DNA of 64,000 nt from an uncultured candidatus Porisulfidus sp. (GCA_965116025.1 OZ220480.1:1951447-2015446); one strand, 5' to 3'; counted from the first letter of the stretch, positions 1 to 34,760 are shown. Numbers and translations: made by a program. Notes: generated by a model not told the origin, from the letters alone.

Positions 1-2
1 GA

Positions 3-1709: not shown

Positions 1710-1846
1710 CATCATGGAATCGAAAGCACGTCCGAAGGACAGAAAATCCTTGAATCTCTCTGGCTGGCAAGTCTTCCCTCGAACTAGCCATTTTCCGCTA
1801 CAGGTTTTACAATCTCACTCACGTTTTGAAACGCAAGGAGAACAAC

Positions 1847-2104
1847 ATGACGGAAGAAACCGAACTGCTGAGGCGAATCACTGTCCGGCCCGATATCTTT
1901 GGCGGCAAGCCGATCATACGCAATATGCGAATCGCGGTGGAACATGTCTTGGCCAATCTAGCGGCAGGAGAAACGGTTGAGGACCTGCTAGAAAACTATC
2001 CATTCCTTGAGCAGGAAGATATCCAAGCATGCTTGCTCTTCGCTCACCGCTCATTAGCTGGAGAACATGTACATGACCGCATCATCGATCAAAGAACTTC
2101 GTGA
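1847..2104 (+). CDS. DUF433-domain protein, antitoxin-like partner of DUF5615
   Basis: Sequence ...RPDIFGGKPIIRNMRIAVEHVLANLAAGETVEDLLENYPFLEQEDIQACLLF is typical of DUF433. An AAGGAG SD lies just upstream of the second in-frame ATG, so the start is placed at 1847 rather than 1826. Stop overlaps the start of the next gene (ATGA). Confidence 0.8.
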   Translation: MTEETELLRRITVRPDIFGGKPIIRNMRIAVEHVLANLAAGETVEDLLENYPFLEQEDIQACLLFAHRSLAGEHVHDRIIDQRTS

Positions 2105-2478
2105 AATTTCTCCTCGATATTTGCGCCACATCGCAAGTACTACGTTCATGCTTGGTAGAACTTGGGCATGATGTCTTATCCGCACGAGACTGTTTTTCCC
2201 ATGCATCAGACGAAGCGTTACTGGAATTCGCCTGCAGGGAAAGTCATGTGCTCATTACCGAGGACAAGGATTTCGGTGAGCTTGTCTTTCTGCATGGCTT
2301 GCCTCATCCATCTATTGTGCGGCTTGTCGGGATGACTCCGACAGAAAGGGCGGATGCTATGCGAAATCTGATTGAGTGCCATGCGGATGCCATACGCAAG
2401 AGCTCAATAATCGTGGTGACCAGAAAATGCGTGCGGATACGGTCGGCAAGAAACCTTGGGAGCGTCAACAATGGCTAG
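2101..2478 (+). CDS. DUF5615-domain protein, PIN-like toxin partner of DUF433
   Basis: MKFLLDICATSQVLRSCLVELGHDVLSARD...ITEDKDFGELVF matches the DUF5615 family consensus (MKFLLDENL...DKDFGELV). Translationally coupled to the upstream DUF433 gene. Confidence 0.8.
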   Translation: MKFLLDICATSQVLRSCLVELGHDVLSARDCFSHASDEALLEFACRESHVLITEDKDFGELVFLHGLPHPSIVRLVGMTPTERADAMRNLIECHADAIRKSSIIVVTRKCVRIRSARNLGSVNNG

Positions 2479-5239
2479 GAGCCCTTGGTACAAAGTCGTT
2501 ACGCCGCGATCAGAAGTGCGGGAAGGTCGCTCATTCAGCCCAGACGAGTTCGCGATTGCCCTTGAGCAGGTGGTCGCGGGAACCGCCCCCTTGGATTACC
2601 GTGACCCTGCGCAATTCTTCTCGCGAACATGTTTTACTCGCGCCTTCAAGGAACATGCTGGTATGGTGCTTCGCCGTCTTGCAGGCGAGACGCAAAACAC
2701 GTCCCCGGTGCTTACCCTCGTTACCCAGTTTGGCGGAGGAAAGACCCACACGCTCACTGCGCTCCACCATCTCGCCAATGCCGGCTCACGGGCCAAAAGC
2801 CTGCCCGGCGTATCTGATCTCCTGGCTGAAGCGGGAATCTCCAAGCCACCTGATGCGCGAGTTGGTGTCTTCGTAGGTAATGCGTGGGACCCCACCGAAG
2901 GGCGTGAAACACCATGGATTGACCTAGCCTACCAAATAGCTGGTAACAGAGGTGTCGCCGCGCTTGGATCGACCGCAAAAACAACTCCACCTGGAACCGA
3001 GTCGCTCGCCCGGGTCTTCGCTGCCGTGGATGCTCCCGTACTGCTGCTGTTTGACGAGGTTCTGAACTTCGTTAACCGGCATCGGGACAAGGCTGAAAGC
3101 TTCCATGCCTTCATACAGAACCTGGCGGTCGCCGTCACCGGAACCACTGAGACGGTCACCGTCATAAGCCTGCCACGAAGTCAGGTGGAGATGACCGATT
3201 GGGATCAGCAATGGCAAGATCGGATCACAAAAGTAGTGAGGCGCGTCGCGCGTGACCTCATCGCCAACGATGAAGCCGAAATTGGCGATGTCGTTCGCCG
3301 GCGCCTGTTTGAGAACCTCGGCGATGAGAAAATTCGAAAACAAGTCTCAAAAATCTATGCTGATTGGTGTTTTGAACGAACTGCTCGGCTTCCCTCTGAA
3401 TGGATGGCGACCGACAGTGCCCCGCCGGAAACCAAAGCGCGGGAGTTTCTGATGGGCCGTTTCGAAGCTTGCTATCCTTTCCATCCCTCGACTCTCTCAG
3501 TTTTCCGAAGAAAATGGAGTGCGCTCGCGCAATTCCAGCAAACCCGTGGTACGCTTGCGATGCTTGCCCAATGGGTATCTTGGGCCGCACGCCAACAATT
3601 TCAGCAAGCCCGAACGGAACAGCTGATCACGCTCGGGTCGGCACCACTGCATGTGCCCGAGTTTCGCGCTGTCGTGCTTGGGCAACTAGGTGAGCAACGG
3701 TTGGATGTGGCCATAGCCGCCGACCTAGCGAGTCCCACGGCGCATGCCCGAGCTCTAGATATCGATACTCGGGGACCAATCAGGGACATACATCAGCGGG
3801 TGGGAGCGGCCATTCTCTTCGAGTCTTCTGGAGGACAAGTAGACAAAGTGGCTCACTTGCCCGAACTGCGTTTCGCCCTTGGTGAACCCGAAATCGAAAC
3901 CACAACCATTGATAACGCTGCGGGGGCATTAGAAGCATCAGGGTTCTTCATCCGCAAAGTCGGAACGGATGGTTTCCGCATCCACCATCAAGCGACCTTG
4001 AAAAAAGTTGTTAACGACCGTCGTGCCACGCTTGACGAAGAAACAGAAATTCGGCCTGTAATTCGTAAATTAGTGGAAGAGGAATTCACCCGAGGTGCCA
4101 ATCTTCCGGTTATACCCTTCCCTGATGACGGCGCAACTATCCAAGATGCGCCACGTCTGATACTGGTCCTCGTCGACCCAGAAGCGGAATGGGAACTCGG
4201 TGGGAAAACAGCAAAAAAAATCGAACGATGGACCAAAGAGAGAGGAACTTCGCCAAGGCTGCATCCTGCGTCCTTGGTCTGGTGTGCCAAAAAACCAGGG
4301 CGGGAACTCAAGAATCGCGTCGAGATGTGGCTTGCTTGGCGACGAGTCTCTTTGGATGTCGCGGAAGGTGTGCTCGGGACGGAATTTGGTCGCGCTGATC
4401 AAAACGAATTGCAGTCCAAAGTCAGAGATGCCGAAAATGCCGCGAGAGACGAAGTATGGGCCAGCTATCGATTCGTCGCTCTCGCCGATGCCAGAGCCGA
4501 ATCCGGACTTAAAATGATTGATCTTGGAGCCGGGCATAGTAGCGCGAGTGAAACACTCTGCGGAAGGGTGTTAACCGCGCTCAAGACCGAAGCCCTGCTA
4601 AGTGAAACCATCGGTGCTGGTTACCTCGACCGGCATTGGCCACCAGCATTCAAGGAGACCGGCGCTTGGCCACTAACCAGCCTGCGGCAAAGCTTTCTCA
4701 ACGGCTCCCTGACTCGGCTCATTGATCCCGATACCGCCCTGCGGCAAAAGATCGTTGAATTCGTCGAGAAAGGAGATTTTGGGCTCGCTTCGGGAACACT
4801 GGCAAGCAGCCAATACGAACATCTATGGTACATGGAGCCAGTCGAGGCTGAGGAGGTCGCTTTCGAGAAAAATGTCTTCCTGTTAACCAAAGCACGAAGC
4901 GAGGAATTGCGAATGCCAGTAGCACCAGAGCCAAAGCCATATTCTGTAACGCCACCACCGTCCACACCTGATCCTGGCAGCGTGGATGAATTCGAATCAG
5001 AGACTAACATGTCTGATGAGCCTGTTCAATTACGTGTGCATGGAACCATACCCCCAGAACTGTGGAATCGCCTCGGCACAACGGTCATTCCAAAACTCCG
5101 CTCCGGTGATGAGCTGAAAACGCAAGTAGAAGTCAGCGTCAAAGTTGCCGCGCCCATGGCGGCAGCCTTACAGACGGATATCCAGCAAACCCTGACCGAG
5201 TTAAATCTTGATGGCCAAGTAAGTGTTGAGTGCTCTTGA
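2456..5239 (+). CDS. DUF499-family P-loop ATPase, BrxC/PglY-like defence ATPase
   Basis: 927-aa ORF with Walker A TQFGGGKTHTL. Large ATPase adjacent to the DUF1156 methylase, a conserved defence-island pairing (COG1483/COG1743). Lower-GC region. Confidence 0.75.
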   Translation: MGASTMARSPWYKVVTPRSEVREGRSFSPDEFAIALEQVVAGTAPLDYRDPAQFFSRTCFTRAFKEHAGMVLRRLAGETQNTSPVLTLVTQFGGGKTHTLTALHHLANAGSRAKSLPGVSDLLAEAGISKPPDARVGVFVGNAWDPTEGRETPWIDLAYQIAGNRGVAALGSTAKTTPPGTESLARVFAAVDAPVLLLFDEVLNFVNRHRDKAESFHAFIQNLAVAVTGTTETVTVISLPRSQVEMTDWDQQWQDRITKVVRRVARDLIANDEAEIGDVVRRRLFENLGDEKIRKQVSKIYADWCFERTARLPSEWMATDSAPPETKAREFLMGRFEACYPFHPSTLSVFRRKWSALAQFQQTRGTLAMLAQWVSWAARQQFQQARTEQLITLGSAPLHVPEFRAVVLGQLGEQRLDVAIAADLASPTAHARALDIDTRGPIRDIHQRVGAAILFESSGGQVDKVAHLPELRFALGEPEIETTTIDNAAGALEASGFFIRKVGTDGFRIHHQATLKKVVNDRRATLDEETEIRPVIRKLVEEEFTRGANLPVIPFPDDGATIQDAPRLILVLVDPEAEWELGGKTAKKIERWTKERGTSPRLHPASLVWCAKKPGRELKNRVEMWLAWRRVSLDVAEGVLGTEFGRADQNELQSKVRDAENAARDEVWASYRFVALADARAESGLKMIDLGAGHSSASETLCGRVLTALKTEALLSETIGAGYLDRHWPPAFKETGAWPLTSLRQSFLNGSLTRLIDPDTALRQKIVEFVEKGDFGLASGTLASSQYEHLWYMEPVEAEEVAFEKNVFLLTKARSEELRMPVAPEPKPYSVTPPPSTPDPGSVDEFESETNMSDEPVQLRVHGTIPPELWNRLGTTVIPKLRSGDELKTQVEVSVKVAAPMAAALQTDIQQTLTELNLDGQVSVECS

Positions 5240-5740
5240 TCCAAGTAGATCACATAGGAAAAGGCTTTGAGCCAATCAACTCCCTTGAAGCCAATCAGCC
5301 ATCAACGTCGTGGGAACGAGTCTGCGTATTGCCAACCATATCGATGAACTGGCTGAGGCCGTCGTTCCCTGCCAATTTTCCTTCTCGTAGAGAATCGCGT
5401 CAAGCCTCGTATTTTCCACTCCGCACCCGCATCTCTCGGCACGTACCGGGCCGCCAGATCAGCAAAGGTCTGCGCCATCCGACCAACCCTCGCCCGATGA
5501 CTGCCGGGCTAACAATCAATATCGCAATCGTCGCCGCCGAAGAGCCAAGCGAGACCGAAAACAATAGCGAGAAATTTCCACATAGCGAAAGCGTTTATCC
5601 AAATAGCCGAATCAGAAGCAATCACTTCGCGAAGCGCGCCTCGTCTCCCAATGCCAGACCGTTTTTGGGCCTAACGCACTTGCATTTTACCAAACGCTCA
5701 TAATCCTTGTCGCGGCCAGCCTACCGCCAAGGAAAGAAAC

Positions 5741-5974
5741 ATGACGGAAACCGAACTTCTGAGCCACGTCACCTCGCGGCCCGATATTTTCGGCGGCAAG
5801 CCGATCATACGCGGCATGCGAATCGCGGTGGAGCATGTCTTGGCCAATCTGGCGGCGGGAGAGACGGCCAAGGATTTGCTGAAAGACTATCCATTCCTTG
5901 AGGCGGAAGATATCCAGGCATGCTTGCTCTTCGCCCAGCGCTCGCCGGCGCCCTCTCATCGCGCGAAGACCTGA
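5741..5974 (+). CDS. DUF433-domain protein, second copy, orphan (no DUF5615 partner)
   Basis: Protein is ~85% identical to the 1847..2104 product (MTETELLSHVTSRPDIFGGKPIIRGMRIAVEHVLANLAAGE...). Nucleotide direct repeat with 1846-2045. Its C-terminus diverges where the GC content rises. Confidence 0.65.
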   Translation: MTETELLSHVTSRPDIFGGKPIIRGMRIAVEHVLANLAAGETAKDLLKDYPFLEAEDIQACLLFAQRSPAPSHRAKT

Positions 5975-6378
5975 TCTGGATCGCGGAACGCCTTGAACTC
6001 CAGCATGTTGCCAGACGGGTCGCGCGCGAACGCGGTCGCCTGCTCCCCAGTCTCTCCCTGAAAGCGGACGGTCGGCTCCAACTCGAAGGCCACGCCGCAG
6101 GCGCGCATGCGATCCACCAGCTCCTCCCACCGCTCCCATTCCAGAATCAGCCCGAAATGGGGCACGGCGATCTCCTCCCCATCGACCGAATTACGGATCT
6201 CATCCCGGGCCGCGTCACGCCGATGCGCCGTGATCTGGTGTCCCATCAAGTCGAAATCGATCCACGTCTCGGACGACCGTCCGATGCGACACTGCAGCAC
6301 CCCGGCGTAAAAGGCTTCCGCCGAGGACAGATCATCGACCGCGATCGCCAGATGAAACCGCGGATGTCCCGCGCTCAT
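5956..6378 (-). CDS. VOC family protein (glyoxalase/bleomycin resistance/dioxygenase fold)
   Basis: 140-aa ORF with VOC-like sequence (HLAIAVDDLSSAEAFYAGVL...). Start overlaps the tsaB stop (ATGA-type coupling). Confidence 0.7.
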   Translation of the reverse strand: MSAGHPRFHLAIAVDDLSSAEAFYAGVLQCRIGRSSETWIDFDLMGHQITAHRRDAARDEIRNSVDGEEIAVPHFGLILEWERWEELVDRMRACGVAFELEPTVRFQGETGEQATAFARDPSGNMLEFKAFRDPDQVFAR

Positions 6379-12744: not shown

Positions 12745-13833
12745 TCAGTCGTTCTGGATGACGATGCGCGGGAATTTGGCGCTGTAGTCTTTCGCCCGCT
12801 CCGCCAGCCGCGCGGCCGCGCGGCGCGCGATGTCCCGGTAGATCTGGCTGATCCGGGAGTCCGGATCCGCGATCACGGTCGGCTTCCCGCCGTCGGTCTC
12901 CTCCCGGATGCGCCGGTCCAGCGGCAACTGTCCGAGCAGCTCCACGTCGTTCTCGCGCGCCAGGCTCTCGCCGCCGCCGGAGCCGAAGATCGGCTCCTCG
13001 TGGCCGCACTGGTTGCAGATGTGCAGGCTCATGTTCTCCACCACGCCCAGCACCGGCACCTCGACCTTGCGGAACATCTTGAGTCCCTTGCGCGCGTCCA
13101 GCAACGCGATGTCCTGCGGCGTGGTCACGATGATCGCCCCGCTGACGGGAATTTTCTGCGCGAGCGTCAGTTGCGCGTCGCCCGTGCCTGGCGGCAGATC
13201 CACCACCAGGTAGTCCAGCCCGCGCCAGCGCGTGTCGCCGAGCATCTGCTCGAGCGCCTGGGTCACCATCGGGCCGCGCCAGATCATCGGCGTCTCCTCG
13301 TCGATCAGGAATCCGATCGACATGGCCTGCAGGCCGTGGCTCTCCATCGGCTCCAGGCTCTTTCCGTCTCTCGACTCCGGCTGCCCGGAGACGCCCAGCA
13401 TCCGCGGCTGGCTCGGTCCGTAGATGTCCGCGTCCAGCACGCCGACCTCGGCGCCCTCCTCGGAAAGCGCCAGCGCCAGATTGATCGCCGTGGTGGACTT
13501 GCCGACGCCGCCCTTGCCGGAGGCGACCGCCAGCACGTTCTTGACGCTCTCCATCGGCTTGAGGTTCTTCTGCACCGAATGCGACTCGATCTCCCACCTC
13601 ACGTCGACCTCGACGCGCTCGCCGCCATCCAGCCGCGCGAGGCGCGCCCGCGCGGCCCGCTCCAGCTCGTCGCGGACCCCCCGGGCTGGATAGCCGAGCC
13701 GGATCTCGACCCGGGCCGAGTCGCCGTCCACCACCACGTCCTTGAGCGCCCGCGCCGCCACCAGGTCCTTGCCGGTCCCGGGGTCCTTCACGTCCTTGAG
13801 CGCGCTCTCTATTCGCTCCTTGCTCAGCGCCAT
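12745..13833 (-). CDS. apbC: Iron-sulfur cluster carrier protein ApbC/Mrp
   Basis: P-loop [21 protein letters not shown] and CNQCGH motif. Divergent from metG as in many proteobacteria. Confidence 0.9.
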
Positions 13834-13898
13834 CGCGGTCTCTCCTCGCCTCGAAATTCTTCCCGTCCGCTTTCCATTATACGGGCGCGGCCGCTACA

Positions 13899-15926
13899 AT
13901 GGCGCGGCGAACCGCCTCTCGTCCAATGCCCTCTCCACGCCGCATCCTGGTCACCAGCGCCCTGCCCTACGCCAACGGGCCGATCCACCTGGGCCACCTG
14001 GTGGAGTATCTGCAGACCGACATCTGGGTTCGATTTCAGCGCTCGCGCGACGTGGAATGCTCCTACGTGTGCGCCGATGACGCGCACGGCACGCCGATCA
14101 TGCTGCTCGCGCGCGAGCGCGGGATCAGCCCCGAGCGACTGATCGAGGAGATCGGGCGACAGCACCGCGCCGACTTCTCCGATTTTCTGATCGAGTTCGA
14201 CCAGTATCACAGCACGCACAGCGAGGAGAATCGCCAGCTGGCGCGCAGCGTCTTCCAGACCCTGTCCGAGGCCGGGCACATCCGCCGCAAGACGATCTCG
14301 CGGTACTTCGACCCCAGCGCCGGGATGTTCCTTTCCGACCGCTACCTGCGCGGCACCTGCCCGCGCTGCGGCGCCGAGGAGCAGTACGGGGACGCCTGCG
14401 AGCGCTGCGGCGCGACGTACGACTCGAGCGAGCTGGTCAACCCGCGCTCGACGCTCAGCGACGCGCCCCCCGAGCTTCGGGAGACCGAGCATCTGTTCTT
14501 CCGCCTCGGCGACTTCGCCGAGACGCTCCGGAGCTGGGCCGAGCGCGGCGGCGTGCAACCGGAGATCAAGAACAAGCTCGACGAGTGGTTCGAGGCCGGG
14601 CTGCGCGACTGGGACATCAGTCGGGACGCGCCATACTTCGGCTTCGAGATCCCCGACGCGCCAGGGCAATATTTCTACGTCTGGCTCGACGCGCCGATCG
14701 GCTACATGGCCAGCCACCTGCGCCTATGCCGGGAGCGGGGCCTCGATTTCGACGACTACTGGCGCGCCGACAGCGAGACCGAGCTGTACCACTTCATCGG
14801 CAAGGACATCGCCTACTTCCACACCCTGTTCTGGCCCGCCCTGCTGCGCGGCGCCGGATACCGGTTGCCGACCGCGGTGTGGTGCCACGGCTTCCTCACC
14901 ATCAACGGCGAGAAGATGTCGAAGTCCACCGGCACCTTCATCGAGGCGCGCGCCTACCTGCGTCACCTCGACCCGGAGCACCTGCGCTACTACTTCGCCA
15001 CCAAGCTGTCGCCCGCCATCAGCGACATCAACCTGAACCTGGACGACTTCGTCGCGCGCGTCAACAGCGACCTGATCGGCAAGGTCGTGAACATCGCCAG
15101 CCGCTGCGCCGGCTTCATCGAGAAGCGGTTCGGCGGACGGCTCGCGAAGCGGCTTCCGGACCCCGCCCTGTTCTCGGAGTTCGCGGCGGCGGCGGACGGA
15201 TTGGCCGAGCGCTACGAGACGCGGAGCTTCTCCCAAGCCATGCGCGAGATCATGGCGCTGGCCGACCGCGCCAACCAGTACGTGACGCGGCAGAAACCCT
15301 GGGAGACGGCGCGCGCGGAGGCCACCCGCGAGCGGGCCTGGGAGGCATGCACCCAAGGCATCAACCTGTTCCGCACGCTGATCGTCTACCTGAAACCCGT
15401 GTTGCCCACGCTCGCCGCCAAAAGCGAGGCCTTCCTCGACTCCGGCCCGCTCGACTGGGAAGCCTGCCAAACGCCTCTTCTGGACCGCCCGATCCGACCG
15501 TTCGCCCCTCTCTCCACCCGAATCGATCCGAAAGACGTTCGCGCCATGGTCGAGGAAACCAAGGCCGCCAGCGCCCCTCCGAGGCCAGAAGCCGCGCGTC
15601 CCGACTCCATCCCGTATGAAGACTTCGCCAAGATTGATCTTCGGGTCGCCCGAATCGAGGAAGCGCGCGAGATCAAGGGCGCCGACCGACTGCTGGCGCT
15701 GACTCTGGACCTGGGCGACGGGCGCCGTCAGGTGATCGCCGGCATCCGCTCCTCCTACGCCCCGGAGCGCTTGCTCGGACGATTGGTCGTGGCGGTCGCC
15801 AACCTGGAACCGCGACGGATGCGCTTCGGCACGTCCGAAGGCATGATTCTGGCCGCTGGCGACAACGAGGGCATCTGGCTGCTGAGTCCAGACGAGGGCG
15901 CCCGTCCCGGCATGAAGATTCGGTGA
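13899..15926 (+). CDS. metG: Methionine--tRNA ligase
   Basis: 675 aa with HIGH-type motif ([15 protein letters not shown]), KMSKS, Zn knuckle cysteines and a C-terminal tRNA-binding domain. Confidence 0.95.
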
Positions 15927-16327
15927 GCGTCGCCCGAGTCGCCTGGATCGATCTTCCACGGTGCGTGGGCTGCGCCCTGTGCGTCGAGGCCTGTCCATTC
16001 GACGCCATCGCCGGGGTCGCCGAGCGAGCTCATCGCGTGATCCCGGGGTTGTGCACGGAATGCGGGCTGTGCCTTCCAGCCTGTCCGGTCGACTGCATCT
16101 CCCTGCGTCCGGACCCGGCGCACCCGACCCGCGACCGCGACTACCGCCGGCAGGCGCGCGACCGGGCGCGACGGCGCCTGCGGCGCCGGGCGGCGCTGCG
16201 CGAGACGCGAGAGAGCCAGCTACGGGAGGCTCACGCCGGATTCCGCGACGACGACGATGCCGCGCGGCGGGCCGCTATCCACGAGGCCGTCGCCCGAGCG
16301 CGCGGAAGCGCGGCATCCCCCAGCTGA
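15923..16327 (+). CDS. 4Fe-4S dicluster ferredoxin (RnfB C-terminal-like)
   Basis: Two CxxCxxCxxxCP motifs. Stop overlaps the nth start (TGATG), as in rsxB-nth arrangements. Confidence 0.7.
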
Positions 16328-16959
16328 TGGACGAGCGCCAAGTCGAGCGAATTTTCCAGCGCTTTCGCGATCTGCGCCCGCACCCGACCACCGAGCTGCG
16401 CTACCGCGACGAATTCGAGCTGCTCATCGCGGTCATCCTGTCCGCCCAGTGCACGGACGTCGCGGTCAACAAGGCGACGACGAAACTGTTCGCCCGCGCC
16501 CACGCGCCCGAGACCATCCTGGCGCTCGGAGTCGAGGGCCTCATCCCGTACATCCGCACCATCGGCCTGCACAACAGCAAAGCCGCGAACATCATCGCCA
16601 CCTGCCAAATCCTTCTCGAGCGGCATGGCGGAAAAGTGCCGCGCGACCGAGAATCCCTGCAGGCGCTGCCCGGAGTCGGGCGAAAAACCGCGAACGTCGT
16701 CCTGAACACCGCGTTCGGAGAGCCCGTCATCGCGGTGGACACTCATATCTTCCGGGTCGGCAACCGCGTCGGCCTCGCGCCGGGGCGCACCCCCCGCGAG
16801 GTGGAGGACGGCCTGACGCGCCTGGTGCCCGAGGCATTCCTCAAGAACGCTCATCACTGGCTGATCCTGCATGGGCGGCACACCTGCACGGCGCGCGCGC
16901 CGAAGTGCTCGGAGTGCGGAATCTCGGACCTGTGCGAATGGCCGGAGCGGAATCCGTGA
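16327..16959 (+). CDS. nth: Endonuclease III
   Basis: HhH-GPD motifs LPGVGRKTANVVL and a C-terminal 4Fe-4S Cys cluster (CTARAPKCSECGISDLC). The longer track ORF from 15961 was rejected as out of frame with the ferredoxin gene. Confidence 0.9.
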   Translation: MDERQVERIFQRFRDLRPHPTTELRYRDEFELLIAVILSAQCTDVAVNKATTKLFARAHAPETILALGVEGLIPYIRTIGLHNSKAANIIATCQILLERHGGKVPRDRESLQALPGVGRKTANVVLNTAFGEPVIAVDTHIFRVGNRVGLAPGRTPREVEDGLTRLVPEAFLKNAHHWLILHGRHTCTARAPKCSECGISDLCEWPERNP

Positions 16960-17075
16960 GAGGCGGCGCCGGGAAGGGAACCAACGAGCGGCGCGCGAGT
17001 CATAGCGTTTGCTACAATCCGAGCGACGACGCACGCGTCGTCTTTCATTAAATTTTTCAAGGAGCGCTTGACACC

Positions 17076-17405
17076 ATGAACCAGAAAGAACTCAATCCCA
17101 TCGCCCTGGCCCTGGGCCTCACGGGCGCGCTGGCCTGCTCCAGCGCCGTCGCCGCCGATAACCCGTTCAGCCTGACCGAGCTGTCTGGACAGACCTACGC
17201 CGGCTCGCACGGAGGCGAGGGCAAATGCGGCGAAGGCAAGTGTGGCGAGGATAAAGATGCCGGCGAGGGCAAGAAGAAAGAGAAATGCGAGGGCCGATGC
17301 GGCGAGGGAAAATGCGGCGAAGGCAAGTGTGGCGAGGATAAGGACGCCAGCGAGGGCAAATGCGGCGAAGGCAAATGCGGCGGAGACGCCGGCGAGGGCG
17401 AATAA
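17076..17405 (+). CDS. hvfA: HvfA/Buf2-family (EGKCG-repeat) secreted RiPP metallophore precursor
   Basis: Sec signal peptide (MNQKELNPIALALGLTGALACSSAVAA), then a low-complexity core with 9 Cys in (G)EGKCGE repeats. AAGGAG SD lies 11 nt upstream. Followed by DoxX, DUF692 and DUF2063 genes. Confidence 0.75.
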   Translation: MNQKELNPIALALGLTGALACSSAVAADNPFSLTELSGQTYAGSHGGEGKCGEGKCGEDKDAGEGKKKEKCEGRCGEGKCGEGKCGEDKDASEGKCGEGKCGGDAGEGE

Positions 17406-17513
17406 CGCCCGCCTCCCGATTCCCGAAGAGCCCGGCCTCGCTCGGGCCCTTCGGGAACCCCGCCCCCGGAGACGACGGGCTCCAGCCCTGTCCATGACCG
17501 AGACTCCGGCCTC

Positions 17514-18131
17514 ATGAACCTGACTCGATTCGCCTGCGCCGCCCACCGCTCCCTCGAGCGCGCGCGGCCCCTTGATTTCCTGCCATCGCTGGCGTTGCGC
17601 CTGTATCTCGCCCCGATCTTCATCGAGGCGGGAGCTCGCAAGCTGGACCTGCCGAGTCTGCTGCCGAAGGAGAGCGTCGCGCATTGGTTCGAGTACGGCC
17701 TGGAACTGCCGCTTCCGACCCTGATGGCCGCCTTGGCCGGCTGGGCCGAGCTGTTCGGCGGCGTTCTGCTGCTGATCGGCCTCGCCACCCGCTGGGCCAG
17801 CATTCCCCTGATGATCACCATGCTGGTCGCCGCCTTCGCCGCGCACTGGAAGAACGGCTGGCTCGCGATCGCCACCGACAGTGGGTTCTTCGCCACCGAG
17901 CGCACCATCGAGGCCACCGAGCGTCTGCAGGTCGCCCGATCCATCCTGCGCGAGGACGGCGACTACGCCTGGCTGACCGAGCACGGCAGCTTGGTCATGC
18001 TGAACAATGGCGTCGAGTTCGCGGTCACCTACCTCATCATGCTGCTGGCACTGTTCTTCCTAGGCGCGGGGCGCTACGTCAGCCTGGACCACTGGATCGC
18101 GCGGCGCTTCCAGCATGCCTGCTCGAGGTGA
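17514..18131 (+). CDS. DoxX-family membrane protein (HvfX/BufD-like RiPP-maturation partner)
   Basis: 205-aa polytopic membrane protein of the DoxX family. Sits between the precursor and the MNIO gene. Confidence 0.7.
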
Positions 18132-18957
18132 GACGCCCGGCCCGCGCGCCGCGGGCCTCGGCCTGCGCCGCGATATCCTCGACGAGGTCCTCCGCCTCGA
18201 GGACGGCGCGGTCGACTTCCTCGAGGTCGCGCCCGAGAACTGGATCGGCCTCGGCGGTCCGCTGAAGACCCGATTCGACGAGCTCGCCGAGCGCTACCCC
18301 ATCACCACGCACGGCCTGTCGCTGTCGCTCGGCGGACCGACTCCACTAGACCAGGATCTGCTTAAGAGCGTCCGCGGCTTTCTGGATGACTACGGCATCG
18401 GCCTCTACAGCGAGCATCTCAGCTACTGCTCGGACCACGCGCATCTCTATGACCTCGCGCCAATCCCATTCACGGAAGAGGCCGCGCGCTACGTCGGCGG
18501 ACGCATCCGCGAGACGCAACGGGCGCTGGACCGCCAGATTCTGGTCGAGAACGTCTCCTACTACGCCGCGCCAGGCAAGCGAATGGAGGAAATCGACTTC
18601 ATCCGGAACGCGCTTGAGGAGGCCGACTGCCTGATGCTGCTGGACGTCAACAACGTCTACGTCAACTCGGTGAACCATGGCTACGACGCGCGCGCCTACA
18701 TCGACGCGCTGCCCGCCGAGCGAGTGGCGTACTTTCACGTCGCCGGACACTACCACGAGGCCGAAGACCTGATCATCGACACGCACGGCTCCGACGTGAT
18801 CGAGTCGGTCTGGGATCTCCTAGAACATGCGTGCGCGAGGTTCGGCCCGCGGCCGACCCTGCTGGAACGCGACTTCAACTTCCCGCCGATCGACCGTCTG
18901 GTCAGGGAGGTCCGCCGCGTTCGCCGCTATCAGGCGAGCGCTTCGGGGTCCGCCTAA
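18115..18957 (+). CDS. hvfB: DUF692 / MNIO-family (MbnB-like) RiPP maturase
   Basis: 280 aa with DUF692 hallmarks ([13 protein letters not shown]…, HLSYCSDH, conserved metal-ligand His/Glu pattern). Confidence 0.8.
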
Positions 18958-18960
18958 CCG

Positions 18961-19740
18961 ATGCCCGCGCGGCCCGAGTTCCAGCGCGTTCAAGAAGAGT
19001 TCTGCGCGCACCTGCGCGACCCCCGCCGCGCCCCTCGCCCGAAAGACGTCTCGGAACGGCGCATGGCCGTCTACCGAAACCTTTTCTCTAAGAACATCCA
19101 AGGCTTGATCGAGCGCTCGTTCCCCCTGAGCGCCCACCTGCTCGGGACGGAGACGACGCGCGCGCTGTCCCGCGCCTTCTACTCGCGGCATGGCTGCCGC
19201 ACGCCCTACTTCCACAAAATCGGACAGGAGTTCGTGGACTACTTGGCCCGAGAGCACGACGGCGATCCGGAGTTGCCCCCCTTCCTGGCGGAGCTCGCCC
19301 GCCACGAGTGGACCGAGGTCCGGGTCCGGCTGAACGACGATCCGCCGCCATACCCTCCCGAGCGGATCGATCCAGACGGAGATCTGCTGGAGCGTCCCGT
19401 GGTCCTGTCCCCCGCTTCAGAGCTCTGCGTCCACGCCTACCCGGTGCACCGCGTCAAGCGGAATTCGCCACCGCCGCGCGAGAGCGAGACCCCGACGTTC
19501 CTGCTCGCGTTCCGCGATTCCACCGGAGCCGCCCGTTTCCTGGAGCTCAGCCCGGCCACCGCCCGGCTGATCGCCCTGCTGATGGATCAGCCGGAGATCC
19601 CCGCGCGATCACAGTTCGGAAGAATCGCCACCGAGCTCGGCCGCGACATGTCCGAGGCGCTGGTCGACGGGGGCCGGCAAGCGCTGGAAAGATTGCGCTC
19701 GCTCGGCGCCATCCTTGGCGCGCTCCGGCCCTCCGGCTGA
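18961..19740 (+). CDS. hvfC: DUF2063-family partner protein (HvfC/MbnC-like)
   Basis: 259-aa ORF 4 nt after the hvfB stop. Composition and motifs typical of DUF2063 partners of MNIO enzymes. Confidence 0.65.
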   Translation: MPARPEFQRVQEEFCAHLRDPRRAPRPKDVSERRMAVYRNLFSKNIQGLIERSFPLSAHLLGTETTRALSRAFYSRHGCRTPYFHKIGQEFVDYLAREHDGDPELPPFLAELARHEWTEVRVRLNDDPPPYPPERIDPDGDLLERPVVLSPASELCVHAYPVHRVKRNSPPPRESETPTFLLAFRDSTGAARFLELSPATARLIALLMDQPEIPARSQFGRIATELGRDMSEALVDGGRQALERLRSLGAILGALRPSG

Positions 19741-20603
19741 ATCGGCGCCGGATCGGCGTCTCCTTGAGCACGGCGAAGCTCCAGCCGCTCGCCGAGCCAG
19801 CGCTGCACCAGGATCCAGATCTCCCGCAACGAGACCCTTCTCCCGAGACTCTCGTGCAGCGCCAGGAAGAAGCCCGGCTGGCGCAACGGATCGACCCCTT
19901 GGTCGTAGCTCCGATACCGGCGCGTGAACTCCTCGTACAAGAGATACTGCAGATCGTCGGAAAGCGCCCGAGGGCGGCCGCGGCACTGTCGTCCATGCAT
20001 CTCGCGCGCCTCCGCGTACAACTGGCTGTTCATGCCGTAATAGCGCATCATCAGGTCCCGGGGCGCGTCGGCGCGAATCAACTCCGCGCACTGGCCGATC
20101 CAGCGCGCCGAGGCGATGGCCGTGTCGATCGACCGCTCCAGAAGCGGACCGTCGATCCGCACGGTCGTGAAGAACCAGAGATATCGCGCCAGCTTCTGGA
20201 GGTCCACCCAGGGACGCATGCTGATGAACTCGGCCTGCTCCGGCTCCAGGCCAAGCTCGCCGAGTGGCCGCTGGCGGTTCCGTCGGTACAGCGTGATGAC
20301 GTGGTTGAAGACGCTCAGGCACAAATCCACCTCCCGGGTCTTGGACTGGGCCCCGCTCATGGCGACCGGGTCCTCGAGCGCCAAGCGATAGCACTGCCTG
20401 AGGATCTCGAACTGCAGGTGGAAGACGGCGAAGCGTCCGCCGACTCCACTGAGGGTGTTGCTCTCGAACGCGGAAAGCTTGCTGACGCGCCCCGCCTGCC
20501 CGCGGTCGATGTTAAGGGTGGCCAGAACCGCCCAATCGTCGTCGTGGTAGCAACGCGAGATATAGCTGACCAGCGCGAAGTTCAAAAGGTTTTTTGTTCT
20601 CAT
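19587..20603 (-). CDS. Hypothetical protein (W/Y/F-rich, possibly helical oxygenase-like; unassigned)
   Basis: 338-aa ORF with protein-like composition, convergent with hvfC. Its last ~50 aa are S/P/R-rich and overlap the hvfC 3' end, so the C-terminus is probably wrong (frameshift or read-through). Confidence 0.45.
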   Translation of the reverse strand: MRTKNLLNFALVSYISRCYHDDDWAVLATLNIDRGQAGRVSKLSAFESNTLSGVGGRFAVFHLQFEILRQCYRLALEDPVAMSGAQSKTREVDLCLSVFNHVITLYRRNRQRPLGELGLEPEQAEFISMRPWVDLQKLARYLWFFTTVRIDGPLLERSIDTAIASARWIGQCAELIRADAPRDLMMRYYGMNSQLYAEAREMHGRQCRGRPRALSDDLQYLLYEEFTRRYRSYDQGVDPLRQPGFFLALHESLGRRVSLREIWILVQRWLGERLELRRAQGDADPAPIQPEGRSAPRMAPSERNLSSACRPPSTSASDMSRPSSVAILPNCDRAGISG

Positions 20604-20959
20604 TATCGGGTCTCCGTTCCTTGGCTTCGCCCGAACCCTCGCGTCGCCGGACGCGCGGGAAAGAATCCCGCCGAACGAGACCGGGGACCGGCGGGCGCCG
20701 GAACACTCGGGAAAGGGTCAGTCGGAGACGAGGGGAAGCCCCCGCTCCGGACTCGCCAGCATCGCTACTTCTTCGTCTTATTGAGCCGGCCACTACCGCA
20801 GACCACCGAGGCACTTCCGTGTGCAAAGGAGAACGCATAGTCACACCCTGATTAAAAGATTAGGCACCTCCCGATCCAATATACACCAAGCGGGGAGCGC
20901 TTTTCTATCGCCTTGATTCACATAGAAATCACATTGAAAATTAGGGGATTCGTCCCGCG

Positions 20960-30911: not shown

Positions 30912-33900
30912 TCACCACTGGAGGGAGGCGCGCAAGGCGATCCGGCTCTCGTCGCCGGTCTCCGCCTCCAGCGCCAGCGCCAGCGTCTCGCCACGGCGGT
31001 AGCGCGTCCCCAGCCGCAGCAGCGCCAACCCGGACTCCTCCACCGACAGCCCCGCGTACGGCGTCGCCAGCCCCGCCCACGGCCCCGACAGCCCCTGACC
31101 CACCTCCGCCTCCAGCCGCGTCCGAGCCTCCGCCTCCCCCAGCCTCGCCGACGACCCCTCCCGCGCGAACAGCCGCGCCAGCCCGCTCCCCGCGTCGCCC
31201 CGACCCAGCGACAGCCGCAGCGACGGACCCCGACCGCTCGCCTCCGGCGTCACCGACATCCGCGCGCTCGCGCTCCACTCGTCGCGATCCGCCTCGTGCG
31301 CCACCAGCGCCCGCGTCCGAAGCTCCACCGACATCCGACCCGTCCCGTCCAAGTACGACACGCTCGCCCCCAGCTCCGCCCCGGCCCCGTCCGTCGCGTC
31401 GCCCCCGTCGTAGCGCGCCCCCGCCTCCAGCGCCGGCGTCAGCCTGCCCCCGTCCTCCAAGACCCGCTCCCGCGACCCCTCCAGCGCCAGCCGCACCCGG
31501 CTCGCGTCCACCGACAGCCCCTCCAGCCCGTCCTCCGCGTCCGTCCGCGCCCGCGCCAGCGAGCCCTCCCCCCGCAGCGCCAATCGCAGAACGTCTCCTC
31601 CCGCGCCCGAGCGCTCCGACAGCGTCCGCCAGCCCCCCGCCGACGCGCTCCGCGTCCGCAAGTCCGCCTCCCGCGTCGCCTGACCATCCTCCCGCACCCG
31701 AACCTTCCCGCGCCCGTAGCTCGCGCTCGCCCACAAGCTCGACCCGTCCTCCAAAAGCCACGCCATATACGGGCGCACCGACGCCAGCCGCGTCTCGTGC
31801 CGCCCCCGAACCCCGTCCGCCTCCGTGTCCAGATCGCCCTCCGCGTAGGACGCCGCCACCCCCGCCAGAACGTCCGGGCGCGCCCGGAAGTCCACCCCGG
31901 CGTGCGCCGACCACACCTCCCCGTCCCAGGACACCCCGTCCTCCGACCCGTCCAGCGACGACAGCGCCCCGCGAACCCAGACCGACGCCACCCGGCTCCC
32001 GTCCGCCCCGGTCAATCCCGTCGCCAGCGCCGTCCCGGACAACGCCGCCCGCCAGTCCAGCCCGGCCCCGTCCGCGCCCGCCCCCGACGCCAGCGCCGCG
32101 CCCAGGTCCAGCGCCTCCGGCTCCACCCCCGACGCCGCGAGCTCGATCCGCCGCGCGATCACCCCGGTCGCCTGCGCCACCGCCGCCGCCAGCGCCTGCG
32201 GCAGCGCCGCCGCGTTCACCCGGCTCGCCCGCGCCGCCGCCCCCAGCCGGTCGCTCACTATCCCGTCCGCCAGAGCGTCCGCCCCCACCGCGTAGCCCGT
32301 CCCCGACAGCAGCTCGACCCGGTACGCCTCCTCCCCCTCCGACCCCTGATCCCCTGCCGTCGGGATCAGCACGATCCCCGCCATCCCCGCCTCCGCCCCG
32401 AAGTCCGCCTGGAAGTCCCGCGGGCCCAGCCCGCCCTCGACGTCCTCCGCGTCGAAGCCGCTCTCCTCCCGCGCCGACAGCCTCAGGCGAACCGTCAGCA
32501 TGCCCGTCACCGCCTTGTCCGACGCCACCGTCAGCCGGATCGCCTCCCCCTCCGCCGTCACCGACGGGTCTGCCGATAATTGCAGGATCGGCGTCGTCTC
32601 CGACACCGACACCGACACGTCCGACAGCGTCGCGTCGTCGTAGCCCCCGCCCGCGGTCGCGTGCGTCAGCGTCACCGCCACCTCCGCTTCCGCGTCCTCA
32701 TCCGCCGCCGCCGACACCGTCACCGTCACCGGAACGTTCCAAGTCGCCGTCGTGAACGTCAGGCTCGATGGCGCCGCCGACACGTCCCCCGACGCCCCGC
32801 CCACCGTCACCGTCACGCTCGCCGACGGCTTCGTGTGCAGAACCACCGTGTACGAGCCGCTCCCGCCCTCCACGACCGTCAGCTCCGTCGGCGCCACCGT
32901 CCCCCCCGGATCGTCCTCCTTCACCGACACCTCCACCGTCCCGACCGACACCGAGCCGTAGCCCCTGCTCGTCGCCACATGCGTCAGCCGCGTCGGCGGG
33001 TCCGTCATCGTGTCGTCGTCCTCCTCCACCGCCGTCACCGTCACCGTCTGGGCTGTCGACCAGTCCGCCGTCGTGAACGTCAGACGCGACGGCGTCGCCG
33101 TCACCTCCGCCGTCGTCCCGCCCACCGACACCGTCACCGCCGCCAACGGCTTCGAGCTCAGAACCACCGTGTACGAGCCGCTATCCCCCTCCTCCAGCTC
33201 CAGCTCCATCGGCTTGAGGGTCACTCCCGGCAGCGGCATCGGCGTCGCCTTCACCTGGTCCGACCACGACGACTGCACCCCGGGACGGACCGCGGCGAAC
33301 AGGCGAAACGTGTATTTCGTGCCGTTCGTCAAACCCGTCACCTTGACGCTCGTCCGGCTCCCGCCCGTGAGCGTCGTGGTCGTGCTCCAGCCGCCCGAAC
33401 TCTTGTACTGGTAACCCCAGCTCGTTATCGGAATGCCCGACAAGGCGTTCCAGCTCAGGGTGGCCGAGGCGTCGCTCCCCGCCGCCGTCAGAACCGGCTT
33501 GGGAACAGTATTCGTCGGCGTCGCCTTCACCTGGTCCGACCACACCGACTGCGCGCCGCTGCCGGTGCGGGCGAACAGGCGGAACGTGTATTTCGTGCCG
33601 ACCGTCAGACCCGACACCGTGTGGCTCGTCGCGCTGCCGTCATCAATCGTCTTGGTCCCGCTCCAGGAGCCGCCATCCGGCTTGTACTGGTAGCCCCAGC
33701 TCGCGACCGTCACGCCCGACAAGGCGCTCCAGCTCAGGGTGACCGAGGCGTAACCCGCTTCGGCGCTCAGCTCCGGCTTGGGAACCGCCGCCGACGCCGA
33801 CGGCGTCGCCTCCACCACCGCCGACTGCCGCCCGTTGCCGCCACTGTTCCGCGCCCGAATGCGGAAGCGGTACTCCACATCGTTGTCCAGACCCGTCACC

Positions 33901-34610
33901 GTGTGCCGCACGGTGGCCGCGTCCGAACCGGAAATGGCGGTCCAGCCGCCCCAGCCGGCGGCGCCCTTCTTCCGCCGCACCTGATACCGCGTGATCGAAT
34001 CGTCGTCCGGATCGGTCCACGACAGCGTCACCCGCGTGTCGCCCGCCTCCGCCAACAACCCCGTCGGGGTGGCGGGGACGGCGGTGGTGCCGTCGTCGTT
34101 GTCAGTGATGGTGAGGATCAGCGTGTTGCTGTTCTGCGTCCAGCCATCCGAACGTGCCAGCGAGTTAGGGACAAGCCTTAAAGCGACGGTTTCCCCGGTC
34201 CCTTCATCAGCTGTGTCGCCCAGAATGCCAATCGCGAAACTTCCATTCGTCCCAATGTTAACATTTACGAATGCGTTGTCGCTGAAGACGCCGGGATAAC
34301 AGATATCCGCACCGCTGGACGGAGCGCTGCAAGAGGTCGTGCCAACATTGGTGTTGTCGGTTGCCGTGCTGCTGCCAGCAACAAACTCAACGTTAAACCC
34401 CACTCTAGTTGGCGTGCCCTCCCCGAGCTTGACGTTGATCGTCACATCCTTCTTGCCGGAATCGCCCTCGGTGATCGTGGTTGACGCGGTCGATATGGCG
34501 ACGGTCTTGGCGGCGCGGGCGTTTTCGGGCGCGGCGAGCGCCACCAGCGCGAAGAAGACGAAGGCGAGTCCCGCCGTCAGGCGGCGAGCGACTCTCCCGA
34601 GACCACCCAC
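30912..34610 (-). CDS. Large autotransporter adhesin-like protein with FN3 and Calx/cadherin-like repeats and a C-terminal beta-barrel
   Basis: Track ORF is 1279 aa (30912..34751). A signal peptide (GLGRVARRLTAGLAFVFFALVALAAPENARA) begins at the in-frame GTG at 34610. Repeated FN3-like modules (…YQVRRKKG…, …WGYQYKPDGG…, …WGYQYKSSGG…). C-terminal ~280 aa beta-domain ends in aromatic W (…RASLQW). The start is ambiguous because of the upstream poly-C tract. Confidence 0.75.
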   Translation of the reverse strand: MGGLGRVARRLTAGLAFVFFALVALAAPENARAAKTVAISTASTTITEGDSGKKDVTINVKLGEGTPTRVGFNVEFVAGSSTATDNTNVGTTSCSAPSSGADICYPGVFSDNAFVNVNIGTNGSFAIGILGDTADEGTGETVALRLVPNSLARSDGWTQNSNTLILTITDNDDGTTAVPATPTGLLAEAGDTRVTLSWTDPDDDSITRYQVRRKKGAAGWGGWTAISGSDAATVRHTVTGLDNDVEYRFRIRARNSGGNGRQSAVVEATPSASAAVPKPELSAEAGYASVTLSWSALSGVTVASWGYQYKPDGGSWSGTKTIDDGSATSHTVSGLTVGTKYTFRLFARTGSGAQSVWSDQVKATPTNTVPKPVLTAAGSDASATLSWNALSGIPITSWGYQYKSSGGWSTTTTLTGGSRTSVKVTGLTNGTKYTFRLFAAVRPGVQSSWSDQVKATPMPLPGVTLKPMELELEEGDSGSYTVVLSSKPLAAVTVSVGGTTAEVTATPSRLTFTTADWSTAQTVTVTAVEEDDDTMTDPPTRLTHVATSRGYGSVSVGTVEVSVKEDDPGGTVAPTELTVVEGGSGSYTVVLHTKPSASVTVTVGGASGDVSAAPSSLTFTTATWNVPVTVTVSAAADEDAEAEVAVTLTHATAGGGYDDATLSDVSVSVSETTPILQLSADPSVTAEGEAIRLTVASDKAVTGMLTVRLRLSAREESGFDAEDVEGGLGPRDFQADFGAEAGMAGIVLIPTAGDQGSEGEEAYRVELLSGTGYAVGADALADGIVSDRLGAAARASRVNAAALPQALAAAVAQATGVIARRIELAASGVEPEALDLGAALASGAGADGAGLDWRAALSGTALATGLTGADGSRVASVWVRGALSSLDGSEDGVSWDGEVWSAHAGVDFRARPDVLAGVAASYAEGDLDTEADGVRGRHETRLASVRPYMAWLLEDGSSLWASASYGRGKVRVREDGQATREADLRTRSASAGGWRTLSERSGAGGDVLRLALRGEGSLARARTDAEDGLEGLSVDASRVRLALEGSRERVLEDGGRLTPALEAGARYDGGDATDGAGAELGASVSYLDGTGRMSVELRTRALVAHEADRDEWSASARMSVTPEASGRGPSLRLSLGRGDAGSGLARLFAREGSSARLGEAEARTRLEAEVGQGLSGPWAGLATPYAGLSVEESGLALLRLGTRYRRGETLALALEAETGDESRIALRASLQW

Positions 34611-34630
34611 AGCCTCAGCACCCCATATAA

Positions 34631-34648
34631 GGGGGGGGGGGGGGGGGG
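34631..34648. repeat. Homopolymeric tract: 18 consecutive G (poly-C on the autotransporter coding strand)
   Basis: Directly read from the sequence: ataa + G18 + tatgag. Lies 20 nt upstream of the GTG start of the autotransporter, between TTGCCT (-35-like) and TTATAT (-10-like) hexamers. Confidence 0.9.
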
Positions 34649-34760
34649 TATGAGAGTTAGGCAAAGATTCCGCCTTAATCACAAACACTCGTCCGACCAA
34701 TCCAGTGCTGATCGCCGACATTATAGCCCAGCTCGTCAGGCGCGCCATCATTAACGAGAA

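Follow-up and report, generated by a model that had tools for sequence, protein, structure and literature searches.

A probably functional hvfA-hvfX-hvfB-hvfC cluster of the EGKCG class, resident beside nth in a sponge-symbiont-like gammaproteobacterium

The question raised by this locus is what a short run of genes encodes in the midst of housekeeping DNA of an uncultured candidatus Porisulfidus sp., and whether it belongs to that neighbourhood by descent or came into it from outside. In the 64-kb stretch analysed here (64,000 nucleotides in its whole length, the window hereafter), four co-directional open reading frames (ORFs) lie on the + strand at 17076-17405, 17514-18131, 18115-18957 and 18961-19740, and encode a precursor peptide of 109 aa, a DoxX-family inner-membrane protein of 205 aa (HvfX), a multinuclear non-haem iron oxidative enzyme (MNIO) of 280 aa (HvfB, of the former DUF692) and a partner of 259 aa with DUF2063 and the RRE-type domain NGO1945_C (HvfC). 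We regard it as quite likely that together they make up an hvfA-hvfX-hvfB-hvfC cluster which is functional and belongs to the EGKCG (Lys-Cys) captophorin/oxazolin class, and that this cluster is a chromosomal resident of a sponge-symbiont-like gammaproteobacterium.

The gene content is plain. The four ORFs, as delimited in an earlier note on this DNA, have identical boundaries in the public gene calls, and all four exact proteins are found in NCBI/ENA as singletons on one 2.02 Mb contig. Moreover 17 nt are shared by hvfX and hvfB, and only 3 nt separate hvfB from hvfC; such packing indicates that the last three genes form an operon. The architecture of a HvfA/EGKCG-type precursor with DoxX, MNIO and DUF2063 proteins, which the earlier note had proposed together with a hidden Markov model (HMM) check by NCBIfam Hvf and Pfam models, was borne out when that check was run, as all four proteins score above curated NCBIfam Hvf cut-offs and Pfam agrees. 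In fact the precursor reaches 49.3 bits with NF050137 KCGExKCG_twice (cut-off 19.5) in two stretches, HvfX 205.7 bits with NF050144 (cut-off 80), HvfB 407.8 bits with NF003818 (cut-off 360) and HvfC 232.1 bits with NF050145 (cut-off 142); in Pfam, HvfX matches DoxX (PF07681, E = 1.8e-20), HvfB matches the DUF692 family (PF05114 MbnB_TglH_ChrH, E = 2e-102), and HvfC matches DUF2063 (PF09836, E = 7e-24) as well as NGO1945_C (PF22106, E = 7e-20). The precursor itself is without a Pfam match, DUF2282 included. In the PDB, HvfB matches the structure of the Histophilus somni MNIO, 3BWW (E = 1.2e-78), and a sequence search with HvfC gave no match.

The catalytic apparatus is intact as well. With one genome per species scanned, at least 523 relatives of the MNIO were found, and 80 of them (loci L001 to L080) were aligned with the HvfB of the window. 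In these 81 sequences the residues H66, H101, E145, D177, N179, H208, D222, H224 and E251 are invariant, likewise R18, R19, D253 and F254, and the window enzyme keeps every position that is invariant among its relatives. By their spacing, and with the ligand numbering of MbnB, we take the residues from H66 to E251 to be the iron ligands of the MNIO family. The invariant set includes counterparts of N175, D242 and H244, the site-3 residues reported as essential in HvfB (bioRxiv 10.64898/2026.07.17.739211). The Lys-Cys (EGKCG) specificity residues of FonB are R15, R16, D249 and F250 (PMC13097082), and their equivalents are present here as R18 R19 near the N-terminus and the catalytic D253 with F254, matched by motif context and not by an alignment with FonB.

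The precursor gene (17076-17405) is preceded by a Shine-Dalgarno sequence AAGGAG at 17059-17064 (+ strand), read from the sequence 11 nt 5' of the ATG and kept as (A/G)AGGAG in L001-L004. Its product has nine Cys, at positions 21, 51, 56, 71, 75, 80, 85, 96 and 101. The earlier note gave the same total and placed all of them in EGKCG repeats, of which the second part does not stand: Cys21 sits in the signal peptide and the core therefore has eight Cys, two of them in degenerate motifs. More specifically, the core (residues 47-109) holds six exact EGKCG, one EGRCG around Cys75 and one KEKCE around Cys71. Seven EG[K/R]CG motifs fall inside 55 residues, against 0.13 expected over the whole six-frame translation of the window, and none is found elsewhere in that translation. 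A chance low-complexity ORF was considered and ruled out by this enrichment, by the HMM score and by conservation together with a signal peptide in 54 loci.

A secreted peptide with a Sec signal had also been proposed, and by inspection the sequence agrees with it: residues 1-26 look like a signal peptide with an n-region MNQKE and an h-region at 6-20 whose mean hydropathy reaches 2.0, and cleavage by signal peptidase I (SPase I) is predicted at AVA|AD, after Ala26. The n-h-c architecture and the register AxA|xxNPF are common to 54 homologous precursors, which have in order a Lys-rich n-region, an Ala/Gly/Leu-rich h-region and the AxA, then NPFxxxEL..GY two residues on. The stretch NPFSLTEL...AGSHG ahead of the repeats is likely the region recognised by HvfC. 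The repeat core (17214-17402, + strand) reads GEGKCGEGKCGEDKDAG / EGKKKEKCEGRCG / EGKCGEGKCGEDKDAS / EGKCGEGKCGGDAGEGE and was detected by TRF as arrays of period 15. Within it the units 17214-17272 and 17301-17359, each of 59 nt, share 93% identity, which together with the 15-nt periodicity points to a recent internal duplication of the array. Among the close relatives, the core Cys number three in L003 and L004, six in L001 and L005 and nine in L002, against eight in the window, which seems to indicate that the array expands and contracts rapidly and frequently. Over the relatives as a whole the core Cys range from 3 to 10. Acidic Ala/Glu/Gly spacers come and go as well, and the long ones that relatives carry are missing from the precursor of the window.

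What chemistry would such a cluster perform? In the cytoplasm, HvfC would bind the precursor through its RRE-type domain and form a heterodimer with HvfB, whose mixed-valent diiron centre would use O2 for a four-electron oxidation of each E-G-(K/R)-C-G Cys to a 5-thiooxazole, with a loss of 4 Da each. Such pairing of HvfC with HvfB and such a diiron- and O2-dependent four-electron oxidation of Cys have been described in homologues (PMC11252979; bioRxiv 10.64898/2026.07.17.739211), and the 5-thiooxazole products there have a chromophore at about 302-305 nm and bind Cu(I) with high affinity (PMC11252979, PMC13097082, PMC12538549). For the window we predict that seven of the eight core Cys are modified, namely the six in EGKCG and Cys75 in EGRCG, which would lower the mass of the A27-E109 peptide (8266.8 Da average and 8261.50 Da monoisotopic as computed for the unmodified form) by 28.2 Da, and that Cys71 in KEKCE is probably left unmodified. 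The enzyme pair FonBC tolerates Arg at motif position 3 and not at position 1, and the residue that follows the Cys has to be Gly or Ala (PMC13097082); KEKCE breaks its rule of a small residue after the Cys.

Two other readings of the product were weighed at this point. The first is that the Cys are converted to oxazolone-thioamide pairs in the way of methanobactin, one of the two products that the earlier note had left side by side with thiooxazole. It was the original assignment in PMC11252979, and the NCBIfam names still read so. However, the original authors and an independent group have reassigned the product to 5-thiooxazole by alkylation-assisted heteronuclear multiple-bond correlation and labelling (PMC13097082; also bioRxiv 10.64898/2026.06.05.730506, 10.64898/2026.07.17.739211 and 10.64898/2025.12.15.693703), so that the family chemistry has since been settled in favour of the other of the two, and the MNIO of the window is far from MbnB (48.4 bits with TIGR04159 against a cut-off of 325). 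We therefore hold oxazolone-thioamide to be very improbable. The second is that the locus is an inactive relic, or encodes an unmodified, Cys-rich, metallothionein-like periplasmic peptide. It finds some support in the unmodified HvfA, which also binds two to three Cu(I) weakly (PMC11252979), and in L003 and L004, which have lost most of their repeats and keep the three core Cys mentioned above. On the other side no reading frame is broken, the invariant catalytic residues are present without exception, each of the four proteins exceeds the curated cut-off of its family model, and the cluster is retained in symbiont genomes of 1.6-2.0 Mb; a relic or an unmodified peptide is accordingly a most unlikely explanation.

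The place of the cluster within the class can be narrowed further. The precursor reaches 37.4 bits with the HvfA equivalog NF050188 (cut-off 95), and HvfB reaches 268.9 bits with the BufB model NF050167 (cut-off 310). As the HvfA equivalog, BufB and MbnB models all stay below their cut-offs, the cluster is neither an oxazolin orthologue, nor a Buf1 or Buf2 bufferin cluster, nor a methanobactin cluster. The label "bufferin-2-type" used before must thus be dropped on account of the BufB score, the absence of DUF2282 and the Lys-Cys-class residues, and the residue after the catalytic Asp is Phe and not Asp (by the criteria of PMC13097082). In fact Buf2 is a separate Buf_6/12Cys (Cys-Lys) family (PMC12452194), and it is set apart from the window type by the motif. 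Altogether the family membership is settled by the curated HMM cut-offs, the residue conservation and the literature.

We now turn to the question whether the cluster is native to its site. The gene nth, for endonuclease III, lies directly 5' of it at 16354-16959 (+ strand), a convergent gene lies 3' of it at 19587-20603 (- strand), and the surroundings are housekeeping genes as had been noted, with a DinG-like helicase, enolase, ApbC/Mrp, metG, nth, coq7, glcF and nrdAB annotated. The earlier note had rightly put the cluster between nth and the convergent gene; it had called the latter hypothetical, for which a Pfam match to DUF2857 is now found, and the cluster inserted, which is not supported. 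A recently acquired island beside nth could draw support from the convergent gene, since its domain is otherwise known from integrative and conjugative elements (ICEs), namely from BisC, an FlhC-like subunit of the activator of ICEclc (PMC7423338). Against it, the GC content of the cluster (0.64-0.70) is the same as that of the flanks, and its GC at third codon positions (0.84-0.87) is like that of metG. ARAGORN found no tRNA or tmRNA in the window and a gathering scan of the whole window with Rfam matched no RNA family, so there is no tRNA-linked island boundary and no riboswitch; nor is an integrase seen among the annotated neighbours.

The comparison with relatives points the same way. Among the matches listed, the closest relatives of the MNIO are uncultured gammaproteobacterial metagenome-assembled genomes, with COS4_bin_16 at 81% identity, followed by 'uncultured Chromatiales' at 78-79% and Candidatus Porisulfidus, a name known from a sponge metagenome report, at 71-77%. 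The block metG-ferredoxin-nth-hvfA-hvfX-hvfB-hvfC with the convergent DUF2857 gene is syntenic in L001-L003 and L005, and in L004, where the contig ends upstream of hvfA, the order is the same from hvfA onward. The Hvf proteins have diverged in parallel with their neighbours: identity to L001 is 81% for HvfB, 81% for HvfX and 67% for HvfC, beside 82% for MetG and 83% for Nth, and across L001-L005 it is 71-81% for HvfB and 73-82% for MetG. Moreover, 65 of the loci L001-L080 have 3 kb or more of upstream sequence, and in 29 of these, from many gammaproteobacterial orders, nth lies on the same strand directly 5' of the cluster, a linkage that two genome-mining papers on this class leave unmentioned. 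No empty site, flanked by repeats, in which nth abuts the DUF2857 or the coq7 gene was seen in close relatives. A recent horizontal insertion was accordingly rejected and is to be considered highly improbable; the shared synteny, parallel divergence, matching GC and widespread adjacency describe an old resident beside nth. That adjacency could reflect either old synteny or a functional coupling. At L038 and some other loci, nth is itself preceded by rnf genes.

The order of genes within the cluster is more variable than its position. The DoxX gene, frequent in the class without being obligatory, is placed as X-B-C in 15 loci and as B-C-X in 24, and the order in H. influenzae is X-A-B-C (PMC11252979). 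This agrees with the "various combinations" noted in PMC12452194. In L032, L048, L050, L056 and L057 the order is metG-nth-hvfX-hvfB-hvfC, with no space for an EGKCG precursor between nth and hvfX and none detected there; these loci may have lost the precursor, may have one of a different type, or may encode it at another site.

How would the cluster be expressed? When the nth-hvfA spacers of the window and L001-L005 were aligned, two conserved islands appeared in otherwise diverged sequence, at 16977-17003 and 17010-17018 (both + strand). The first, GGAACC-N16-GTCAT, resembles a promoter of the extracytoplasmic function (ECF) sigma type and is a putative stress-inducible promoter of hvfA; its GGAAC and GTC are kept in L001, L003, L004 and L005 with a diverged N16 spacer, L005 having GGAACTT-N16-GTCTA. 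This layout is presumably the classic -35/-10 arrangement of ECF/RpoE-type promoters. The full pattern, which was derived post hoc, has a single match in the window against 0.09 expected, and 16 of 54 loci have GAAC-N16-19-GTC within 220 nt 5' of their precursor, compared with 4.8% of windows chosen at random. The second island is an extended -10-like element, TGCTACAAT, whose form TG(C/T)TA(C/T)AAT is position-invariant in the window and L001-L005; it is a putative sigma-70-type promoter with no recognisable -35, and since the -35 is absent, it is fitting that a sigma-70 two-hexamer scan of 16700-20900 gave no promoter. Thus hvfA would be transcribed from a promoter region of its own, conserved and just 3' of nth.

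Two hairpins flank the precursor gene. The one at 17025-17042 (+ strand), GACGACG-CACG-CGTCGTC followed by a T-rich tract, was picked up by a scan for terminator-like structures (-17.2 kcal/mol, z = -2.6) and is probably a terminator of nth and/or a stem-loop in the 5' untranslated region of hvfA; its long form is specific to the window, and the relatives have only a short stem. The other, a GC-rich stem-loop without a U-tract in the gap between hvfA and hvfX (17420-17457, + strand; -30.9 kcal/mol, z = -2.8), has equivalents in L001 (z = -4.8) and L003 (z = -4.5), and both of its arms align in the window and L001-L004. We infer that it acts as a partial terminator or an mRNA stabiliser, by which the precursor mRNA would probably outnumber the mRNA of the enzymes.

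After modification, the acidic, Gly-rich peptide would be exported by Sec and cut by SPase I after Ala26, as HvfA is reported to be cleaved by SPase I and secreted (PMC11252979). In the periplasm it is predicted to bind Cu(I) by the N and S donors of the thiooxazoles, about one per KCGEGKCG doublet and three to four in total, where the published ratio is about one Cu(I) to two modified Cys (PMC11252979). There it would buffer copper or a related envelope or oxidative stress, with HvfX as an accessory membrane protein. Both the chemistry and the binding of copper have experimental proof in oxazolin, fontiphorin, gonophorin and bulbicupramide (PMC11252979, PMC13097082, PMC12538549), and from these we infer Cu(I) sequestration as the physiological role of the peptide in the window.

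Several points weigh against this picture, and the physiological role is its weakest link. The mmr cluster of Microbulbifer showed no expression and no response to copper, and gave marginal protection in E. coli (PMC12538549); copper binding by fontiphorin and gonophorin is heterogeneous (PMC13097082). A tblastn search of the window with E. coli RpoE found no ECF sigma gene, and no regulator gene was found in the window either. The prediction of seven modifications borrows the substrate rules of another enzyme, FonBC. To the shortfall of the precursor with the HvfA equivalog must be added that the stretch from the signal peptide to the repeats has no Cys, so that the pair of Cys which H. influenzae HvfA has in its N-region is missing and the details of recognition may differ. 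Finally, the Cys21 in the signal peptide seems to admit processing by either SPase I or SPase II.

One alternative is that the biosynthesis is the same and the role is general protection against envelope, oxidative or sulfur stress, or the binding of another thiophilic metal, in place of copper buffering. Such a role would go well with a DoxX partner, with a symbiont host that oxidises sulfur and with a promoter of the ECF type: DoxX homologues are tied to oxidative and sulfur stress (PMC11252979, PMC12452194), expression of hvf-type clusters rises under oxidative stress and with gold besides copper (PMC13097082), the Microbulbifer cluster is indifferent to copper as just described, the RpoE-like GGAAC-N16-GTC is kept upstream, and no copper-resistance genes are seen among the annotated neighbours. 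However, all EGKCG products that have been characterised are selective, high-affinity binders of Cu(I) (PMC11252979, PMC12538549, PMC13097082), and related bufferins protect against copper in vivo (PMC11626156). We thus treat a role other than copper buffering as a tentative alternative which deserves some weight, and copper sequestration as the preferred role.

Cys21 leads to another alternative, in which SPase II cuts at Ala20|Cys21, Cys21 is triacylated, and the peptide is tethered to the membrane or to outer-membrane vesicles as a lipoprotein. This Cys is fixed in the window and L001-L005 though its flanks differ (ALACSS vs MLACTS), and it is nearly absent from other precursors; its position at 21, a Lys in the n-region and an uncharged h-region fit a permissive PROSITE-type lipobox (...GALAC21), and NedA of Neisseria dentiae, with an SPII signal and EGKCG repeats, has been shown to be triacylated and modified (PMC13056109). 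However, the residues A-L-A-C depart from the strict lipobox [LVI][ASTVI][GAS]C, and the SPase I site of the family, AxA|xxNPF, is kept in the same register as in 50 homologues that have no such Cys. A clade-fixed Cys with a permissive lipobox and the precedent of NedA make SPase II processing a minority alternative, which we hold doubtful, with SPase I cleavage as the expected route. A more daring combination, rather unlikely in our estimation, would make the peptide a membrane-tethered lipoprotein through Cys21, driven by an RpoE-like ECF sigma factor within an ancient nth-linked module for envelope or oxidative stress. If so, the peptide would be a factor at the host interface and relevant to symbiosis rather than a soluble periplasmic copper buffer, and the widespread nth-hvf adjacency would reflect functional coupling rather than an inherited gene order.

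Set beside the known systems, the window cluster is close in content to oxazolin hvfXABC of nontypeable H. influenzae (NTHI1440-1444; PMC11252979), with which it shares the four protein families, the adjacency of B then C, and a precursor with a Sec signal and EGKCG doublets, there three of (A)EGKCGEGKCG. The two differ in that the order is A-X-B-C in the window and X-A-B-C in H. influenzae, the precursor has 109 aa instead of 95, and only HvfB, HvfC and HvfX of the window pass the equivalog cut-offs; besides, the window precursor is without the Cys38/Cys43 disulfide pair of H. influenzae HvfA (PMC11252979) and has an extra degenerate doublet KEKCEGRCG and the Cys in the signal peptide, and its HvfB is without an insertion of about 14 residues found in the Pasteurellaceae enzyme. 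The founding captophorins, fontiphorin (fonABC, Fontimonas thermophila) and gonophorin (Neisseria gonorrhoeae), likewise combine an EGKCG precursor with an MNIO and a PME1 partner (PMC13097082), and the Arg-Arg and Asp-Phe active-site residues are common to the fontiphorin-type MNIO and the HvfB of the window, whose cluster, unlike theirs, has a DoxX gene between precursor and MNIO. FonA has seven modified sites (PMC13097082), and the product of the window is likewise expected to be a Cu-binding peptide with multiple 5-thiooxazoles.

Bulbicupramide, from mmrABC of marine Microbulbifer, belongs like the window lineage to gammaproteobacteria associated with marine invertebrates, and the EGKCG precursors there have a conserved N-region and 5-8 Cys (PMC12538549). 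The Microbulbifer MNIOs (L024, L034, L036) are about 60% identical to the HvfB of the window, and GAAC-N-GTC is found upstream there too. In contrast to the window, no DoxX gene was detected in the Microbulbifer loci and nth is not adjacent, and Microbulbifer are free-living commensals whereas the window lineage has relatives among sponge symbionts with small genomes. NedABC of N. dentiae resembles the window in its EGKCG repeats, its MNIO/partner pair and a Cys near the end of the signal peptide (PMC13056109), but the lipobox of NedA is a canonical SPII one, whereas the A-L-A-C of the window is non-canonical, with the SPase I site retained. The bufferins Buf1 (DUF2282) and Buf2 (Buf_6/12Cys) of Caulobacter and others are also peptides of the ribosomally synthesised and post-translationally modified (RiPP) type with a Sec signal and a core of MNIO, DUF2063 and DoxX proteins; their chemistry is 5-thiooxazole, their role lies in copper stress, and their MNIOs group with the window type in one large sequence cluster (PMC12452194, PMC11626156). 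The window differs from them, beyond the BufB score and the missing DUF2282, by a Lys-Cys and not Cys-Lys motif and by the absence of sigma and anti-sigma (NrsF) genes adjoining the cluster. As for methanobactin (MbnA/MbnB/MbnC), in addition to the distance from MbnB, the partner in the window is DUF2063 and not MbnC, and its precursor has a signal peptide and not a leader.

One more cluster of this kind matters little alone, since few RiPP clusters are as numerous, and the routine annotation of NCBI would give each of the four genes its name. In fact more than 20,000 captophorin clusters in RefSeq (PMC13097082), more than 3,000 HvfA homologues (PMC11252979) and about 2,000 Buf_EGKCG proteins (PMC12452194) have been counted, of which class the four products named above are the characterised examples. 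With this locus the class is seen in sulfur oxidisers of the sponge-symbiont-like kind with small genomes, relatives of Ca. Porisulfidus, where it is kept despite genome reduction. Moreover, EGRCG and KEKCE are natural substrate variants able to test the published specificity rules of MNIOs, and the conserved promoter elements and the nth linkage can serve as handles on the regulation and the physiological role of EGKCG peptides.

Some features of the neighbourhood merit attention in their own right. Upstream of nth, apbC/mrp, for an Fe-S carrier ATPase (12745-13893, - strand), is divergent from metG (13899-15926, + strand), and the start of a small 2x[4Fe-4S] ferredoxin gene (15923-16327, + strand) overlaps the stop of metG, with nth next. 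Fe-S proteins are classic targets of copper toxicity, and the run of Fe-S-rich genes directly upstream of a copper-peptide cluster may be coincidental. Downstream, the convergent gene (19587-20603) encodes a 338-aa protein with DUF2857 at residues 98-269 (Pfam, 5.8e-17) and no NCBIfam or PADLOC match; the DNA around it is of the housekeeping kind, and its vicinity holds no ICE genes. At their 3' ends this gene and hvfC share 154 nt (19587-19740), an overlap of 130-154 nt being kept in L001-L005, and the Ser/Arg/Pro-rich tail of the DUF2857 protein may be simply an antisense read-through of hvfC.

Farther away, the first 6 kb of the window (1-6000) are low in GC (0.52-0.55 vs 0.64-0.70 elsewhere in the window). 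They contain at 54-1709 a DNA-adenine methylase similar to PADLOC HmaB (E = 5.7e-52), of whose profile only the C-terminal half is matched, and at 2456-5239 an AAA+ ATPase similar to HmaC (E = 3.4e-90; Pfam DUF499); this part looks like a portion of an anti-phage defence island of the Hma type, with horizontal transfer as its probable origin. Two adjacent, very large ORFs at 30912-34751 and 34761-38189 (both - strand) encode one protein of 1279 aa with fibronectin type III (fn3) repeats and another of 1142 aa without a Pfam match, and the region of 30-34 kb has an unusually strong negative GC skew of -0.24 to -0.27 with a GC content of 0.68-0.72. Such 'eukaryote-like' proteins of the fn3 type would fit a sponge-symbiont origin.

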